Assembly: GCF_006345805.1 (NCBI RefSeq)
Contig: NC_043000.1
Coordinates: 12,710,001-12,774,000 of the forward strand
Length of the DNA stretch: 64,000 nucleotides
Direction of reading: 5' to 3'
Source: Octopus sinensis
Lineage: Eukaryota
How positions within the stretch are numbered: the first letter of the stretch is position 1; every line of letters begins with the position of its first letter. A program made the position numbers and the translations under genes. Below the pieces are notes generated by a model that was given only the letters and a program-made list of their open reading frames with translations, did no database searches and had not been told where the DNA came from. Shown piece by piece: positions 7,922-59,370 of the stretch.

Positions 7922-7967
7922 AAAACTGTTGCTCAGAGTTTCACGTTCCCGTTCGTCAGACAGTTTT
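7922..7967 (-). ncRNA. Type I minimal hammerhead ribozyme motif in a PLE terminal region (U16.1 mutated to C)
   Basis: Reverse complement reads AAAACUGU-CUGACGA-ACG(GGAA)CGU-GAAA-CUC(U)GAG-C-A-ACAGUUUU, with an 8-bp stem I, followed by AATAAA. It is on the same strand as, and downstream of, the PLE RT. Confidence 0.75.
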
Positions 7968-9532: not shown

Positions 9533-10455
9533 TTAAATAGGCGTGTAAAATAATATAAAATGCGCAGCATTTTGAAATGCTGTCTCACTCGAAGAAATTA
9601 ATGATATTCGCCTTCCTACACTACTAACTAGGTTACTAAGAATTACAGGTGGATGGTTAGATTCTTTGCTAATATAACTTAGCTTTTCATTGGGCTTACA
9701 GTGTAAATCTAAGTTGATATCTAAAAAAAAATCAACGCTTTTAAGATTACTTTCTATTGTAATCCGTAAGCCCATCCTTTGGAAGAAATCAATCAGATTC
9801 TTCTTAAGTTTATCTAACTCATGACCGTTTAAATTATGGGTGACAATAAACCTGTCATCCCTGTATAATCCTGCGTCTATACAAGGGAATCCTAGATTTA
9901 GATTATCAAAAATATAAGCTCCTATAAGCACACATAACTTTGCCTCATCATATGCCCCCATCGGTACATCGAAAAGAGAATCCTTACTCTTTTTGACCCG
10001 GGTAGAATCCTAGTTAAAAAGAAGAGATTTCTTTGCATGCAGGATAATATCTATTTCCGAGTCATCGATGGTGACACAATGCTTGGTGAAGTCTAGTACT
10101 TTTAGAAGCAAAGGCCTAGGTATTGATGGGTAACAGTCAACAATATCAAACTGTGTAAATTTGCAGTTATGCTTATGGTTAATCCCTTTAAACCACTCTA
10201 TCACTGACATGCTATTTTTCCAAACCCGTAAATTTGATTCACTATCTAACTTGCTTAAAATACGATCTAAAATATATTTGCTAATAATACCTATTTCCGT
10301 TTTAGCAGGATTAATCAGTCTACATTTAGGGTTTCTATTAAAATTAGCTTTATGGTCTTTTAGGATAATAAAAGGATGACATGGGGGGATATTCTATCCT
10401 ATCACTAACTTTAAGATTGTTAGCAATTCTTCTTGCCTTCAAATTCACCTCCAAA
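9533..10455 (-). pseudogene. Penelope-like element reverse transcriptase, decayed
   Basis: Motifs LKDHK..F..NPKCRLINPAK, FTQFDIVDCYPSI, FDVPMGAYD and GLYRDD. ORFs 10010-10210 and 9533-9961 are in frame and separated by a single stop. Confidence 0.85.
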
Positions 10456-15552: not shown

Positions 15553-17066
15553 AAACTTTGATATGTTTCGACCAAAGATTGGTCCAGGCCATGTCTAACT
15601 TAACAGCACCATCTGATAGGATTATCTAAATCCTTTTTAAGTCAAGTTTTGTGGTATTATTGTCCATTCACGTAGTGAGTTCTTGTTGAGTGAGTTGCAT
15701 CCAGGTATGGGTGGTTTATCTGGTATTCCTTGAAGAAATTTGTCCAGACTCCGTTTAAAGGTGATGAGATCTTTTTGCTCTTTGATCAGTTTTGGGACAA
15801 TGTTAAACAGAGAAGGGCCTGCTGAGGAAAAGAAATTGTGTCGCAGTGTACGTATATGTTGTAATCTTGAATTGGGCAGCAGACGTATGGCCCGTGGTCC
15901 CAGGCTTGGATGAACCTTGAAACTAATGTTCAGGTCATTTGGGCAACGCTGGCGGTATATTCTCCGCGTCGTGCAAATGATGTACCGCTCGCGGCGACGC
16001 AGGAGAGAGTTGAGTTTCAAGGCTTAAGGCGGTCCCAGTAATCGAGATCAGTCATGCCTTCAATTCGTTTAGTGAGTGCCCTCTGGGGTGATTCAATTTT
16101 CGAGATGTTTTGTTTTGTATGGGGAGATCACAAGAGGCAGCAGTATTCGATGTGTGACCGTACAAAGGAGGAGAAAAGTAGAATGATGACACCTTGTTCT
16201 CTGGACCGGAGGGTTCTTAAGATCCAGGATATATACATACATACACACACACACACATATACATATACCATATATATATACATACATATACCATATATAT
16301 ATATACACACACATACTATTATACCATATATATATACATATACACACATACCATATATATATATACACACACATACTATTATACCATATATATATACATA
16401 TACACACATACCATATATATACATATATACACATACCATATATATACATATATATATATATATACACATACCATATATATACATATATATATATATATAC
16501 ACATACCATATATATACATATATATATAATATATACACATACCATATATATACATATATATATATATACACATACCATATATATTACATATATATATATA
16601 TACACATACCATATATAACTATATATATATATACACACCATATATACATATATATATATATATACACATACCATATATATACATATATATATATACACAT
16701 ACCAGATATATACACATACCATATATATACATATATATATATACACATACCATATATATACCTATATATTATATACATATATATATATACATACATCATA
16801 CATATATATATACATACATATATATATACATACATATATATATATACATACATATATTAATATACATACATATATATACATACATATTATATATATTACA
16901 TACATATAATATATATACATACATAATAATACATACTACATATATACATATATATACATACATATATATAGATACATATATAAACACATATATATATATA
17001 CACATATATATATATACACACATATACACATATATATATATACACATATATTATATATACACACAC

Positions 17067-35304: not shown

Positions 35305-35497
35305 TACTGCACGCATTTTTTTTCTCTCCTTCTTTCTGTGTTTTTCTCTCTCTGTGTATCTTTCTGTTGAAGAGCGTAGGCTCGAAACGTTAAAGACTTG
35401 TTTTATTTATATTTCCTGAGCGCCATACTAATACAATTGTTCGTTTGTTTTCCACCTGCCTTCGTCTTTTGTTTATTTTCATAAAGCTTCCCGTTAT
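35305..35497 (+). mobile_element. ~190-bp (TA)n-associated element carrying a non-canonical HHR-like motif (35359-35396)
   Basis: Homologous copies at 39620-39760 (+), 41684-41873 (-) and 59184-59370 (-) share the ctttctgYYgaagagcgtaggctcgaaa core. The 3' end abuts (TA)n. Confidence 0.7.
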
Positions 35498-35536: not shown

Positions 35537-35583
35537 AAAACTGTCTGATGAACGGCAACGAGAAACTCAGAGTAACAGATTTT
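35537..35583 (+). ncRNA. Type I minimal hammerhead motif, same family as 7922-7967
   Basis: AAAACUGU-CUGAUGA-ACG(GCAA)CGA-GAAA-CUC(A)GAGU-A-ACAGAUUU, then ...ctgctttAAATAAAg homologous to the 7890-7920 flank. Embedded in (TA)n. Confidence 0.75.
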
Positions 35584-38570: not shown

Positions 38571-39619
38571 ATCGTATTCCCTGCCGCATCTCTCTACGAA
38601 CACTGATTCTATTATTGTAAGTAATAATAATCACGATTATTAAATATATAGTAGCATCTGTTCGGTGGTCAGATTAAATGGCCACCGATCGGAACTATTT
38701 TAAATCTCACGTTCGATTCGCCAAAGATGTTCTTCATCTTTTCTGTGTCTACTGACAGTGAGGTATCCCGTTGGAACTGGGACGCTCAAAAGCCTTGTCG
38801 GCATATGCGGACGACGTCACCGTTAATAGCGTTTAGACACTAGGGAAGTCGGAATTGTCGACATCGTTCTAAAAGAATACAAGGTGATCACAGAAGCAAT
38901 AAACCTACTCTAACAAGTCGATGGGCCTACAGCTCGGTATCTGAAAACTGAAGTTCATACCGCAGGCCAGCGTCGCGGGGATACCGCACTGTGGACGGAC
39001 CGGTTAAGCTGTTTTCGATCTGTTTTGACCCAGACCTCCAAATGGATAGAAAGTGGAACGACCAGGTTATGTACAGTTTGACCAGTTTCACTCACAAATG
39101 GGCTGAGAGGAAGCTATCTTTGAAAAGTCAGGCAGAGGGAACGAATGCGTAAATAGTCCAGTAGCGTAACTGATACGGTGGGCGATCTACCTAGGACGGC
39201 GCTTATATGGAACAGCACTTTTGGGTCTGTTGCATAAGCCTGTATAGGGAGTAGAGAAGAAAAATTCAAGGGCTGCCTTGGGCGGCACCCAGTCTAGCAA
39301 GCCACTGACGTGGTGCTCCAGGTCTCGTCTTACAAGATTGGAACGTCAAATCTTTCGCTTGTTACCCCCACGTAAGTTATAATAAAACACGCCACTAACA
39401 AAAGATGTTCCGTCTGTGATCTTGCAATTTTAGTTATTTATATGCGCAAGCATGTCTGAGTTGTTAAGAAGCTTGCTTCTGAACCATGTGGTCTTGGATT
39501 CAGTGCCACTACGCGGCACCTTCAGCAATTTTCTTCTATAGCCAACGCCGGGCCATCCAAAGCCTCGCGAGTGGATTTGGTAGGCGGAAACTCTGAAATC
39601 TAGTTGTGTGTGTGTATTC

Positions 39620-39760
39620 AACCGTTAATCCCTACACAATTTTTTTCTCTCCGTCTTTTTTTTTTTTTTCGTTCTTTCTCCATTTTTTCCCTCTCAACAC
39701 TTTCTGTCGAAGAGCGTAGGCTCGAAACATCAAAGTCTTTTCCATTCTTCCCGGGTGTCA
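39620..39760 (+). mobile_element. Partial copy of the ~190-bp HHR-like element (motif 39699-39736)
   Basis: ACUUU-CUGUCGA-A-GAGC(GUAG)GCUC-GAAAC-AU-C-AAAGU. Confidence 0.65.
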
Positions 39761-40010
39761 AATTTCGTTTTGGTATTTATGGGAGCAGCTGTTTTCGAAG
39801 ACTTATATTGTCGTTGAATGCTCGAAATGAGGAGTAGATACACAGCCAACAACTGATGAAGGGTCGTTCTTTGCGTTGCTTGTCCTGTTTTCCATTTGTT
39901 TCTCTCGTTCTTTGCGTATTCAACTCATTTGTTTTCGTATTTCATGTTGCTTACTGTTGGTGACGTCCTGTACAACCAACACAACAATTATCAAACTGTT
40001 TGCACTACCA

Positions 40011-40285: not shown

Positions 40286-40560
40286 TTAGAGACAAAACCA
40301 CTATTAGGCAAATAAAACAATGAAAAACTTAAGCCAATACATTGTTTAACCCTCGCCAAGATAAATATTTAAACCACCTGATGAATGACTGTGACTCAAA
40401 AATTTGAAGAAGTTAGCAGCCATGAAACGATCGTAGTGTGATATTAATTATATTTTTTTAATAATTTTGTTATATATTTAAATAATATAAATTAAATAAT
40501 CTTATGTATTGGCTTAAGTTTTTCATTGTTTGATTTGCCTAATAGTGGTTTTGTCTCTAA
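40281..40560. mobile_element. PLE-like terminal structure: ~60-bp inverted repeats flanking an HHR
   Basis: 40281-40342 is the reverse complement of 40504-40560. The right arm continues after the Helitron at 41064. Inverted partial terminal repeats are typical of Penelope-type insertions. Confidence 0.55.
40375..40438 (+). ncRNA. Type I hammerhead ribozyme with extended stem II and palindromic stem III
   Basis: CAC-CUGAUGA-AUG.CUG.UGACU...AGUUA.CAG.CAU-GAAA-CGAUCG-U-A-GUG. The core is intact, stem III is the palindrome ACGAUCGU, and the cleavage triplet is GUA. Confidence 0.75.
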
Positions 40561-41063
40561 TCTATATATATAAAACTCTAGTTGTGTGAGTGTCTGTCCC
40601 CTTCGATTTAGATTCCTAACTCCTCCCACATTTTGCGGTGCAGTTTAACCAAATTCGGGTATCTTATAGTCGTGATTCATATCGAGCCCGTCTGACTATT
40701 AGCGCGCGTCAACGATGAGTCTACGATTTTAAAAATAATTTAACATCATTTTTTATTCCATTTTAATGCATAAATGCATCGTGTGTCGATGGCGGCGGAG
40801 TTGGCGTCCACGCTCACAGCTGCACCTGTTTGCTTCTCCCCTTCCTCCCTCGTGAAGCTGTGGGGAAGGGAGTGTAAAGAAATCAACGTCGTAATGCGTT
40901 GTGAAGGAAACCAGCGTTCTTTTAGAACAACGACTTCATGGCTTGAAGACACCAAAACAAAAATGGCTAAGAAAGCCCGAATTTATAAGGGAAGTAACTC
41001 TCTAAAAATGCTTATATAGTTATTTCCCTTACAAACCCGAGCAACGCCGGGCGATACTGCTAG
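40561..41063 (+). mobile_element. Non-autonomous Helitron (~500 bp)
   Basis: 5' end TCTATATATATAAA, subterminal hairpin CCCGAGCAACGCCGGG, 3' end CTAG. Inserted between A and T with no TSD; the pre-insertion site ctctaa|tttaat is reconstructed from the inverted-repeat partner at 40281. Confidence 0.85.
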
Positions 41064-41163: not shown

Positions 41164-41684
41164 CTAGCAGTATCGCCCGGCGTTGCTCGGGTTTGTAAGG
41201 GAAATAACTATATAAGCATTTTTAGAGAGTTACTTCCTTTATAGATGCCAATTCGGGCTTTTTTAGCCATTTCTGTTTTGGTGTCTTCAAACCATGAAGT
41301 CGTTGTTCTAAAAGAACGCTGGTCTCCTTGACAACGCATTACGACGTTGATTTCCTTAAACTCCCTTCCCCACAGCTTCACGAGGGAGAGAAGAAGGGGG
41401 AGAAGCAAACAGGTGCAGGTGTTTGAGCGTGGACGCCAACTCCGCCGCCATCGACACACGATGCATTTTATGCATTAAAATGGAATAAAAAATGATGTTA
41501 AATTATTTTTAAAATCGTAGACTCATCGTAGACGCGCACTAATACTCAGACGGGCTCGATATGAATCACGACTATAAGATACCCGAATTTGGTTAAACTG
41601 CACCGCAAAATGTGGGAGGAGTTAGGAATCTAAATCGTAGGAGACAGACACTCACACAACTACAATTTTATATATATATATAGT
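41164..41684 (-). mobile_element. Second copy of the same Helitron, inverted
   Basis: Near full-length reverse complement of 40561-41063, with CTAG at 41164-41167 and the same hairpin. Confidence 0.85.
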
Positions 41685-41873
41685 GAGAATTTATAAAAAA
41701 AAAAGCAAAAGACGAAGACGGGTGTGTAAACAACAAACAGATATATTAGTTTAACGCTCGGGAAGTGAGAAAGTCTTTTACTTTTCGAGCCTACGCTCTT
41801 CAGCAGAAAGGAACACAGAAATAAACAGGGAGAGAAAATAGAAAAAGTATAGTGGCTGGCGATCTATCATGGC
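41684..41873 (-). mobile_element. Copy of the ~190-bp HHR-like element (motif 41774-41811)
   Basis: Reverse complement reads CUUU-CUGCUGA-A-GAGC(GUAG)GCUC-GAAAA-GU-A-AAAG. The 3' end abuts the TA run at the Helitron 5' end. Confidence 0.65.
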
Positions 41874-42932
41874 GTATGTGTGTGGATGTGTTTGTAATGG
41901 TCGTAAATTAGCATCATTTTCCTACAAGCGATGTTGTTCGTTTCCATTTGTTAAACAGTCCATTTATTGCCAACACACTCTGCATCGGTATGCTGAGGTG
42001 GATGATGTGCAGACGTGCAGTGAGGCTGCAGCACCTTCAGAGATTCCAGGACGGTAAACCAGTGTGGTCGCCTCTTGTGATACATTTTCCTCTAGCTCTT
42101 CTCCTTGAAGTTACAGTCCTGGATCAAGCGGATATCAAGTTTGTGCTGCTACTATCAGGAAAACGTTGTCAGAAGTTCACAGTCCTCAACCAGTCAGATA
42201 ATGCGGCCGGTAGAACTCCTACATTAGCGTATTATAAAGGGCTAATGGTGGAGAAAAGCGACGACATTCTCAGGAAACTCTAGGTGTGAACATGAACCAA
42301 CTTGCTAGTCTGCTCTGTAGAACTTCTATACTGAGTACTATGGATACTTTCCAGAAATCCCTGGCCTGGCAGTGTTATCAAAGACATTGCCGGTTCATAA
42401 CACTCAACATGGAGTGCCATCAATCGGGTTTGTCTGTTCTGTACTCATTTGTAGTGGCTTAATGCAGACATGGCGGGGATTCGATCCTCGATCGCCATAT
42501 TTCACTTAACAGCACTTTTCTCGCAGTAAAACAAGTTTTTTTTCTGTGAGTGACAGCAGTTACATTTATCAGATGCCTTCGCTAAGCAGAATAATGTCTT
42601 TGCCACTTGACCCGTCTAACCGCTTCTAGGCCACCAAAAGCTAGAATAGAGATAACAGACCACCAACGAAATCATTTGTTCTTAACAATATGTCTATCCT
42701 TCTTGCTGGTTTTGGATAGTTATAAAAACAAGAACTCCGTAAATCAAAGTCAGTTGGTGAGAGCGACTGACAGAGAGGCGGCTGACCGGCTCAAGCGAAA
42801 TGCTGTCTCGACTGAGGTAACTTCACAGAATGACAACTATGGACATAGCCAACGTAGAAGCTGTCTCGTCCTACCACTCTCACTTTCACTAACTCACTTT
42901 CTTTTCTCTGGAGCATTACCATATCTTTCTTA

Positions 42933-46290: not shown

Positions 46291-48309
46291 GTGTGTGTGT
46301 GTGTGTGTACGTTGGTTTATGACAGATGAAAGAGGGAGAAGTGCTCAATACCTAATGTAGAGGATGTGATTTTTTATTGAAATTGAAACAGGTAATTTAT
46401 CCCTGGACTCGAGTTTCACGCCACTGCTATCTCCAGGCGTGTTCTCGCCAAAAGAGGTTACTTAAAGGTGCCAAAAGATCGTCAAGAGACTTCAGGCGAT
46501 GAACAATCGTTGAAATAAAGTGATGTAGATGATTGCTTCAGTGGTGGAGACAGGTTTTAGGAACTCGGTGTACCCTAGGGTTTGTGAGGCAGAGGATATG
46601 AAAGACGTTGAGGTTAGACGCTTTAACCCCTTCCACCTTGAGTTGAAAAGTAGAGGAACACTCCCATATTCTGCGAACCTTCTTTCCCATCGCTGATCCC
46701 GTTGGAGAGCTTTGAGTACTTCATTTGTTACGCGACGGAGAAGGCCATAAGTCTAAATCCGTTTACATAACCAACATGAAATTTGACAACAACCGTACCT
46801 TACAGCACCCACTATGTCAGAACACAACTGTATTGGCCCCTGCTTCCCGTATTTATCAGTTGGATTTTCTACTTGAAAAACATGAACATTAGACATATGA
46901 CGATGAACATAAACAGGCGCAGGAGTGGCTGTGTGGTAAGTAGCTTGCTAACCAACCACATGGTTCCGGGTTCAGTCCCACTGCGTGGCATCTTGGGCAA
47001 GTGTCTTCTGCTATAGCCCCGGGTCGACCAATGCCTTGAGAGTGGATTTGGTAGACGGAAACTGAAAGAAGCCTGTCGTATATATGTATATATATATGTA
47101 TGTGTGTGTGTTTGTGTGTTTGAAAGTATGAAAAACAAAGATGACCGCGGTGGAATTTGAACTCAGAACGAGAAGACAGATGAAATACTTATTTCTTTAC
47201 TACCCACAAGGGGCTAAACACATAGGGGACAAACAAGGACAGATAAACGGATTAAGTCGATTATATCGACCCCAGTGCGTAACTGGTACTTAATATATCG
47301 ACCCCGAAAGGACGAAAGGCAAAGTCGACCTCAGTGGAATTTGAACTCAGAACGTAACGGCAGACGAAATACTGCTAAGCATTTCGACCGGCGTGCTAAC
47401 GTTTCTGCCAGCTCGCCGCCTTTGAAACGTTATTTAATATCAATAGGTGTGTGTATATGAATATTGGCTCCGTACCTGCACAAGTATTTGGAGTTGTAAT
47501 TGTCTCACTTCAGGAACTATATTGTTATTTCAAATATTACGCATATCTATTCAAATCAAATTTAGAAAACAATAAAACAATAAAAAATCAATCAAAAATA
47601 AGAAAATACACTGTCTTCAAAATAATATGAAACACCTGTTTAACGAATTTTTTCTTTAACTTCAACATATAAGGGAAATGAAATACTGATTCTTTCTTTT
47701 TTTTAAGGAAATAAAAATGAATTTGGTCAGAACGTAAGGAAGGGAAGATGTTACACAAAAATAATTGTTATCAAATTATTACATGGGGCCATATTTGTTT
47801 TTTCTTTTATTTGATCTCTTCAGTTGTATGTTTTCTTTTTCATAATACTCTTTACTTGCTCTTTACTCTTCACTTGTTTCAGTCATTTGACTGCGGCCAT
47901 GCTGGAGCACCGCCTTTAGTCGAGCAACTCGACCCCGGGACTTATTCTTTTTGTAAGCCCAGTACTTATTCTATCGGTCTCTTTTTGCCGAACCGCTAAG
48001 TTACGGGGACGTAAACACACCAGCATCGGTTGTCAAGCAATGCTAGGGGAACAAACACAGACACACAAATATACATACATACATATATATGTATATATAC
48101 GACAGGCTTCTTTCAGTTTCCGTCTACCAAATCCACTCACAAGGCATTGGTCGGCCCGGGGCTATAGTAGAAGACACTTGCCCAAGATGCCACGCAGTGG
48201 GACTGAACCCTGAACCATGTGGTTGGTTAGCAAGCTACTTACCACACAGCCACTCCTGTATGTAAATGTTGTGTAATATTTGTATTATCCTATGAATACG
48301 ATTCATGAA

Positions 48310-53251: not shown

Positions 53252-54660
53252 TTGTTTCAATCATTGGACTGCAGCCATTTTGGAGCACCACCTTGAAGAG
53301 TATAGTCAAAAAAATCAAACCCATTACTTGTTTTCTTGAAGTCTGGTACTTAATTCTACAGCAGTGGTTGATGTGAAACAAAGCACAAAGATACACATAC
53401 ATCCATACATGCACACACACACATACACACACACACAAACACGCATATATATATATGCATATATATATATATATATATTATATATATAATATATACATAT
53501 ATACTACAACTAATGTAGGATAAAATTTTTTTCAGAAAAAATTTCATCATAAGTGGCAGCATATATATATTATATATATATATATATATAAACGATGAAT
53601 AGCTTTGCGTAACCATGGTCCGTTTTGTTCTCTCTCTTTATTATCATCTTATAATCATCTCATAATAATGACTTTTATGACTCATATTACTACCTCAGTC
53701 AATCTAAATGTATATATTTGTTGTTACCTGTCATAAATAGCCTTTTTTTATTTGCAATGTGCATTTTCGTTGATTTTTCATATTTTACCCTTACAATTCC
53801 ACGTGTATTTTATGTTTTCTTTTTATAACATATTTCTACTATATATTATATATATATATATATACATATATGCATGTTTGTGCGTGTGTGTGTGTGTGTA
53901 TGGATGTATGTGTATCTTTGTGTTGTGGTTTGCATCAACCACTGCTCGACAGCTGATGTAGAATAAGTACCAGACTTCAAGAAAACAAGTAATGGGTTTG
54001 ATTTTCTTGACTAAACTCTTCAAGGTGGTGCTCCAGCATGGCTGCAGTCCAATGATTAAAACAAGCAAAAGATAAAAGAAACAAAAAAAAAAAACTCATG
54101 GTTAACTTCCCCAAGTACACTTCCCCATCCATTGACTAGCATGGCATGCACATACCACTTACCACCCAGTTCTAGCATGACCTCGGTACAGTTTACATTT
54201 TTTTCATACAGTAGTAGTTGTAGGCGATGATTCAGAGATCGGGTTTCAAATTTAGGTTATCTTCACTGCTAATTGTTATGAGATATCACACCTACCCCTT
54301 ACACTTACACACTTACACATGCATACACATACTTATATATATGTCCATGGATACACAAAATTCACATGTACGAGGATGTATATATACACACATGCATTCA
54401 CATACGATAACATAAATAATATTAGTTTCATTTCAAGATAACACAGTTGGCTGCTGTTGGTGAAGATGTTGTGGTTGGTGGCAGTTGCAATGATGATGTT
54501 GTTCTTATTGGTGGTGGTGGTGTTGGTGGTCGTTGTGGTCATGATGGTGGAACAGGAGTGGCGAAGGTATTTGACATACAGTTAATGATGTAAGTGGTTT
54601 TTCTGATGATGTTGTTTAACCGCAGGTCAGCCCTGAATCTGAATGAGTAGGCCTTGAAAT

Positions 54661-55519
54661 CAAGAGGACTGATCCTGATGTCTACAACTCTTTCCTGCAA
54701 TCAGACCTAGACACAATGCAGCAATGGATCACAGACTGGCAACTGAAACTGGCTGTGGACAAGTGTACCACCATGCATTTTGGGAGAAAAAACCCTGCGT
54801 CCACATACCCCCTCCACAACACTGATATCAAGAAATCCTCTTGCGAGCGTGACCTAGGCATCACTGTCAGCAGTGATTTGCGTTGGACAAAGCATATCTC
54901 TAAAATTGTCAGGAGGGCCGAGGGTGTCTTGGCATCACTCAGCAAGACTTTTGTTAGCCGCTCTCCAGCCATCTATTTAAAACTGTATACAGCTATGGTA
55001 CGACCACACTTGGAATTCGCATCATCAGTTTGGAATCCCTATCTTGCTCAGAACATTGACCTCCTGGAATCTGTCCAGAGACGTGCAACCAAACGCATAC
55101 CCTCCATCAGACACCTACCATATTCTGAGTGCCTTGTTTCCCTGGGCATGGATTCACTGAAGCTCCGGCGTCTGGCGACGGACTTGGTAAACACCCACAA
55201 GGTTATCAACCACCTCACCAACAACAACACTGAACACCTTTTTGATCTCCATGTGTCTAACACACGTGAACATGCCTACAAAGTCAGAAAACAACACAGC
55301 TCCCATGACTTTCGGAAACATTTTTTCACGCTCAGAGTTGCTGAAGCATGGAATAAACTGCCTGCGTCAGTTGTTGACTGCCATGACACTGCATCCTTTA
55401 AGGCCCTCATGCTTTCCGAAATCCGCCGAAACTACACCTGATTATATATACACTTTAGATGAGTTGTAGTGCACCTGAGCACTGTACACAATTATTATTA
55501 TTATTATTATTATTATTAT
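54661..55519 (+). mobile_element. 5'-truncated CR1-clade LINE (RT C-terminus, short 3' UTR, (ATT)n tail)
   Basis: ORF 54716-55441 has ERDLGI, LYTAMVRPHLEFASSVWNP, LESVQRRATK and SLKLRR..DL. The 3' end gtagtgcacctgagcactgtacacaa(tta)n recurs as a tail-only remnant at 11225-11268. Confidence 0.9.
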
Positions 55520-59183: not shown

Positions 59184-59370
59184 TAACGGGAAGGTTTACG
59201 AAAATAAACAAAAGGCGAAGGCAGGTGGAGTACAAACAAACAATGTATTAGTATGGTGCTCAGGAATAGAAATAAAACAAGTCTTTTACGTTTCGAGCCT
59301 ACGCTCTTCGACAGAAAAGAAACAAGGAGAGAAAAAAATTGCGTGTAGGGGCTAATGATCCAGCATGACG
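59184..59370 (-). mobile_element. Copy of the ~190-bp HHR-like element inserted in the internal (TA)n of a SINE
   Basis: Motif at 59282-59319. It splits the family-D SINE between tatatgtatat and acgacaggcttc. Confidence 0.7.

Follow-up and report, generated by a model that had tools for sequence, protein, structure and literature searches.

A Penelope-like retrotransposon of Octopus sinensis with a fixed A6U change in its hammerhead-type motif

Four truncated copies and the element behind them

The window, a stretch of 64,000 nucleotides of Octopus sinensis DNA, holds four copies of a dispersed repeat (Table 1). In each, a hammerhead-like motif is laid out in the order stem I (CUUU/AAAG), CUG-X-N-GA, one extra A, stem II, GAAA, a two-base stem III insert, U and N17. 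The four motifs lie where the original prediction had placed them, with C3 at 35364 and 39704 on the plus strand and at 41806 and 59314 on the minus strand, and the 19-base motif centre matches four times in the window against 0.01 expected. Its description of the parts was likewise accurate: positions 6 and 7 of the CUG-NN-GA core are UU, UC, CU and UC in copies 1 to 4, one A follows, stem II is GAGC(GUAG)GCUC and is succeeded by GAAA, position 17 varies (U, C, A and A), and stem III is ACGU in two copies (1 and 4; ACAU in copy 2 and AAGU in copy 3). In copy 2, unrelated sequence replaces the 3' part, with the break about 30 bases past the motif.

Table 1. Positions of the four copies in the window and of the parts of copy 1
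Feature	Position	Strand	Description
Copy 1	35307..35494	+	5'-truncated Penelope-like 3' end, youngest subfamily (U7, U17), flanked by TA repeats on both sides
Copy 1, hammerhead-like motif	35360..35395	+	Stem I = 35360-35363 with 35392-35395
Copy 1, core box	35364-35370	+	U6 = 35367; extra A = 35371
Copy 1, stem II	35372-35383	+	Followed by GAAA 35384-35387
Copy 1, N17	35391	+	Predicted cut between 35391 and 35392
Copy 2	39619..39762 (ends approximate)	+	Old subfamily type (C7, C17); motif 39700-39735
Copy 3	41682..41874	-	Middle-aged subfamily; private C6 and AAGU changes; motif 41810-41775
Copy 4	59186..59370	-	Young subfamily (C7, A17); small deletion just upstream of stem I; motif 59318-59283

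Other repeats surround these copies. An abundant SINE-like repeat occurs at six places in the window, three per strand (e.g. near 46962, 51266 and 60178 on the plus strand); the region immediately upstream of copy 4 holds one, and a more diverged one is found on the upstream side of copy 2. Adjoining the 3' TA tract of copy 3 are two 215-base inverted repeats (40560-40774 and 41467-41681), separated by 692 bases and 96% complementary, which resemble a non-autonomous DNA transposon. The open frames 54647-55441 and 15637-16023, both on the minus strand, resemble C-terminal fragments of LINE reverse transcriptases (RT), as judged by eye.

Across the genome, the 3' ends of the repeat are fixed and run into TA repeats (a TA-type repeat is present in the 3' tail of 82 of 93 copies), the 5' ends are graded, and longer copies continue through a low-complexity 3' UTR into an open reading frame (ORF). 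The length of about 190 bp given in the original prediction therefore describes the truncated remnant only. When 30 loci were picked by the ORF and the seed was omitted from the motif count, the hammerhead motif was found some hundreds of bases past the stop in 21 of the 29 remaining loci (20 with U6, one with C6), and eight had no motif within reach downstream. The ORF pieces contain DKG, DIQSLYT, YIDD, a CxxxxCxxC linker and then a GIY-YIG domain with CCHH; Pfam searches of the fragments gave RVT_1 (E 3e-4) and GIY-YIG (E 6e-4), both below the curated cut-off, and the pieces align along full-length RT-endonuclease proteins. The succession of RT, CX2-5CxxC linker and GIY-YIG characterizes the Neptune or Nematis type of Penelope-like elements (Craig et al., PMC8557442), and the element is thus assigned to that type, an assignment that rests on layout and on RT similarity, with coral and cartilaginous fish proteins among the matches. 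Shared with that type are the C-terminal GIY-YIG with CCHH, the linker, the targeting of (TA)n microsatellites and the typical inverted 5'-truncated pair (seen at locus L049), a likeness judged from these features; a difference is that the relatives keep A6. Sixteen long stretches of 8-9.5 kb contained no copy with two direct terminal repeats and no intact ORF, and all copies seen are broken. The four copies in the window are 5'-truncated 3' ends of an abundant Penelope-like retrotransposon.

The original prediction saw in the copies a non-autonomous element, Penelope- or retrozyme-like and about 190 bases in length; as a separate unit it would spread via tandem or circular RNA. Most copies are indeed short, many 5' ends lie no more than about 40 bases apart (a bias set by the query), and a few adjacent direct pairs exist (L085, L218 and L240). 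The graded 5' ends nevertheless run into the ORF, and the copies are dispersed rather than arranged in arrays, and their limits do not coincide with the cut site. Metazoan non-LTR retrozymes (bioRxiv 10.64898/2026.07.22.740005) resemble the present family in their type I hammerhead and in their relation to Penelope, but they consist of tandem non-coding units with a hammerhead in each, whereas the copies here are dispersed, truncated ends of a coding element and continuous with its ORF. The proposal is largely refuted, and we regard it as highly improbable.

The core at position 6 and constraint across subfamilies

A6 counts as one of the essential bases of the hammerhead core, and position 6 is where this family departs from its kind. 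With positions 6 and 7 left free, a 24-base pattern has 17,007 exact matches in the genome and its reversed control has none, which bears out the claim of great abundance. A6 occurs in 203 of these matches and C6 in 407; U6 is present in 98 of the first 100 matches listed. In a set of 93 copies selected through a motif of the 3' region that is not part of the ribozyme, 22 lack the hammerhead motif through truncation or deletion, and U6 is found in 63 of the 64 copies assigned to the six main subfamilies. Because 37 of these 93 copies match the exact pattern, the number of 3' ends is roughly estimated at 40,000. U6 is the majority base in all eight subfamilies defined below. The copies picked for A6, C6 or G17 (the last with 125 exact matches) are scattered over all clusters, so they are point mutants of inserted copies, and a distinct subfamily of any of the three was rejected. 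The true core deviation is hence A6U and not the A6Y put forward originally, since C6 is rare and spread across all subfamilies; nor is position 7 restricted to U or C, as all four bases occur there, by subfamily.

In its other parts the motif is of a known kind. The minimal hammerheads of Penelope-like elements have the consensus CUGANGAH and a palindromic stem III (Cervera and De la Pena 2014, PMC4209133). The extra A, which had been listed as a core variant, is present in all four copies, but it is part of this published consensus and no deviation, and neither it nor the ACGU stem III is unusual among the minimal hammerheads of Penelope elements. The family shares with the type I hammerheads of that study the location in the 3' repeat downstream of the RT-endonuclease ORF, the extra base between 9 and 10.1, the G10.1-C11.1 pair, stem II, the palindromic 15.2/16.2, H17, a U-rich upstream flank and a short stem I. 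Both build and place downstream of the ORF thus uphold the original view of a hammerhead-shaped motif of the Penelope minimal type. The difference lies in the CUGANGA box: all 56 rows of Fig. S3 in that study have A6, which the descriptor demanded, and the present family has U6. Phage Bcep176 has a natural hammerhead that likewise carries a pyrimidine at position 6 (Perreault et al. 2011, PMC3088659); there it is C, in a full-size ribozyme at a single phage locus, whereas the present lineage, with its tens of thousands of copies, is fixed for U6.

Searches built on the canonical box would miss the motif, as had been foreseen. An Rfam scan around copy 1 gave no hammerhead match at E up to 10, and the 150 matches listed for the whole window were nearly all microRNA models on microsatellites. 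CUGANGA descriptors can in this way miss a family of tens of thousands of copies. Literature searches listed no work on a natural U6 hammerhead or on this family; Lunse et al., on Penelope hammerheads with a short stem III, Repbase and data given only in figures may bear on the matter. In contigs of public runs, the stretch is present in six organisms and 10 studies, and the evidence of U6 in other organisms consists of single contigs, from four runs, that match copy 1 exactly over the core. The summed depth over the motif in run X19 is about a thousand times that over the 3' flank, with differing flanks as loose ends, a hint that the motif is kept while the flanks differ.

The history of the motif was followed in 233 collected copies, of which 11 without the 3' motif, copy 2 among them, were left out and 222 were aligned and clustered on non-ribozyme columns. 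Three of the 11 resulting clusters (2, 4 and 2 copies; truncated, internally deleted or duplicated) were dropped, and the remaining eight, of 7-42 copies, form a near-ladder with mean divergence falling from about 17% to 4%. Between successive subfamily majorities, no change occurred in 34 hammerhead columns, U6 included, against 64 changes in 94 flank columns (Fisher p 2e-7; 5e-6 with the 3' flank alone). C3, U4, G5, G8, A9, G12, A13, A14, A15.1 and U16.1 are invariant in the eight majorities and ACGU stem III is found in all subfamilies, although copies were anchored on stem II to U16.1 (up to 3 mismatches), which partly favours invariance there; the six columns of the C3-A9 box outside the anchor give p 0.017 alone.

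A hammerhead leaves two sites free, positions 7 and 17. In the successive subfamilies N7 is A, C, U, C, G, A, C and U and so changes at all seven steps, and N17 reads C, A, A, A, U, A, A and U, with four changes among C, A and U and never to G (the oldest cluster was mostly picked on C17). Only these two sites vary, which is the hammerhead's own free-site pattern. Flank columns average 0.7 changes each, which N7 far exceeds; a mutation hot spot, or escape from host recognition at a rare free position, might account for this. Private mutations in single copies are about as frequent in the C3-A9 box (5.2%) as in the flank (5.6%); inserted copies decay neutrally, and the constraint therefore acts on the transposing lineage and not on host loci. 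What emerges is a known kind of element with a known ribozyme and a new core variant, built and constrained like a Penelope minimal hammerhead; a fixed A6U under continued hammerhead-type constraint is apparently a trait not reported before.

Stem I, the sister family and the origin of U6

The compensatory change proposed for stem I (UCUUU/AAAGA versus ACUUU/AAAGU) proved to be private to copy 2. Among the 22 copies of the cluster resembling copy 2, the pair 2.5/1.5 is C/A in 13, C/G in four, A/A in two, U/A in two and G/A in one, and never A-U. Between families, stem I does show a genuine swap. In a sister family whose 3' repeat is similar and which shares stem II but has a UCC loop II (3,511 exact matches; L272-L291, also L093 and L113), position 2.4 is G and position 1.4 is C or U in 20 of 22 copies, where the present family has C-G. 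Stem I of the sister family is often weak, and no ORF was found within 1.5 kb in 20 of its loci.

The sister family has A6 in 98 of the 100 matches listed. Moreover, a descriptor free at position 6, applied to 80 metagenome loci with related RTs, found 21 motifs, all 21 with A6 and the extra A, and none in shuffles; several of these loci (58-62% identity where the alignment is unbroken) carry the hammerhead listed for a Neptune element of Acropora digitifera. Judged from these two groups, U6 is likely derived and would have been fixed before the oldest subfamily seen.

The swapped pair also bears on the idea that the stretch is conserved as a DNA element, serving the terminal repeat as promoter or as a site for protein binding, or because it codes for protein, with the hammerhead as a dead relic. 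Promoters are present in Penelope terminal repeats (PMC6765202 / PMC6155905), the ORF of the anole Penelope starts inside its hammerhead (PMC11167929), and in one frame read from the sequence N7 is the third base of a four-fold codon. However, that frame has further four-fold third positions, none of which varies, and N17 creates a stop in it in the A17 subfamilies, and coding constraint was rejected on these grounds; that the free sites are exactly N7 and N17 and that stem I pairing is kept across families speaks against either version. This idea is disfavoured and seems to us improbable.

A second hammerhead-like family is present in the window at 35541-35578 (plus strand) and about 7925-7963 (minus strand), where a canonical CUGAYGA and an extra A are combined with a stem II that is very short and a stem III that is longer and near-palindromic; one copy lies about 45 bases after copy 1. 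On the same strand as the motif at 7959 and about 1.6 kb upstream of it, a broken RT remnant of Penelope-like appearance (9533-10393, minus strand) gives a weak RVT_1 match (E 0.096) and no match to the RT of the U6 family.

Folding, cleavage and competing explanations

Stem II is predicted to pair with a probability of 0.98-1.0. In natural copies, the predicted G5-C15.2 pairing averages 0.63 in 65 copies with U6, against 0.06 in 13 with A6, 0.03 in 11 with C6 and 0.00 in 13 of the sister family; in some subfamilies it is weak (0.10 in C7/C17 and 0.25 in G7/U17), and all these values come from a folding model that ignores tertiary contacts. U6 is thus predicted to allow an inactive pairing in the lone motif, U6-A15.1 with G5-C15.2, whose strength would vary by subfamily. 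As U6 has been kept at a normally essential position through eight subfamilies, the putative ribozyme is likely slowed or locked.

Slow cleavage has precedents. Penelope minimal hammerheads are weak even with A6, and their dimers cleave weakly (PMC4209133); the natural A6C hammerhead cleaves at less than 0.1 per minute, slow but active (PMC3088659). In a deep mutational scan, changing one or two bases of the CUGA turn left little activity, with the C3-G8 swap as the exception (Roberts et al., PMC9901934). The hammerhead of the anole Penelope cleaves only with protein, reverse transcription there starts internally, downstream of the hammerhead, and in vitro insertion did not need cleavage (Frangieh et al., PMC11167929).

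These data leave a possible, if doubtful, case for a retired hammerhead kept as a structure, in which the U6 junction would form an imperfect rod (U4-G16.2, G5-C15.2, U6-A15.1) bound by an element protein or host factor and cleavage would be irrelevant. The strong pairing of U6 copies relative to A6, C6 and sister copies, the slowness of position-6 mutants (PMC9901934, PMC3088659), the dispensability of cleavage for insertion in vitro and insertion ends without a clear peak at the cut all agree with such a rod. It is at odds with C3 and U16.1, which are unpaired in the rod and never change, with N17, which avoids G in its four changes, and with the weak predicted lock of the C7/C17 and G7/U17 subfamilies.

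The explanation that we lean towards, with reservations, is that these 3' ends belong to a Penelope-like retrotransposon whose terminal-repeat hammerhead, with its fixed A6U, still cleaves slowly, as a dimer or together with the element protein. Reverse transcription would start about 100 bases 3' of the motif and usually stop early, leaving short copies, and selection would act on the transposing RNA. Two motifs would pair via ACGU and so form stem III, and the predicted off state of the lone motif would have to be opened by dimer formation or protein. A bolder version, which we hold to be rather unlikely, makes the U6 hammerhead a built-in switch: U6 would lock the lone motif with stem III, the dimer or the RT would open it, and the GUAG loop or a protein would compensate for the lost A6 contacts. 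If this were true, selection would be maintaining a position-6 variant in a transposon lineage of great success, and unseen core variants might exist in many of the Penelope families recorded as having no hammerhead. A U6 lineage that has kept all other core positions through eight waves of transposition offers a test of whether Penelope hammerheads must cleave or only fold, with natural controls in the same genome, namely A6 point mutants of the same subfamily (e.g. L044) and the A6 sister family.

The ends of insertions are, at best, slightly enriched at the predicted cut site, which is no firm sign of cleavage. Counts of 5' TA junctions are 31 for the predicted cut and 15 for a control TA in loop II (p 0.026), a comparison confounded by TA microhomology and unequal patterns. 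Of 119 truncations within a 31-base span, 16 fall at the predicted cut, where about 10% would be expected (p 0.16), again with microhomology as a confounder. Two truncated copies (G000:C2:131812463-131812509 and C3:14225643-14225694) begin at the predicted cut and have a short duplicated start, as from template jumping.
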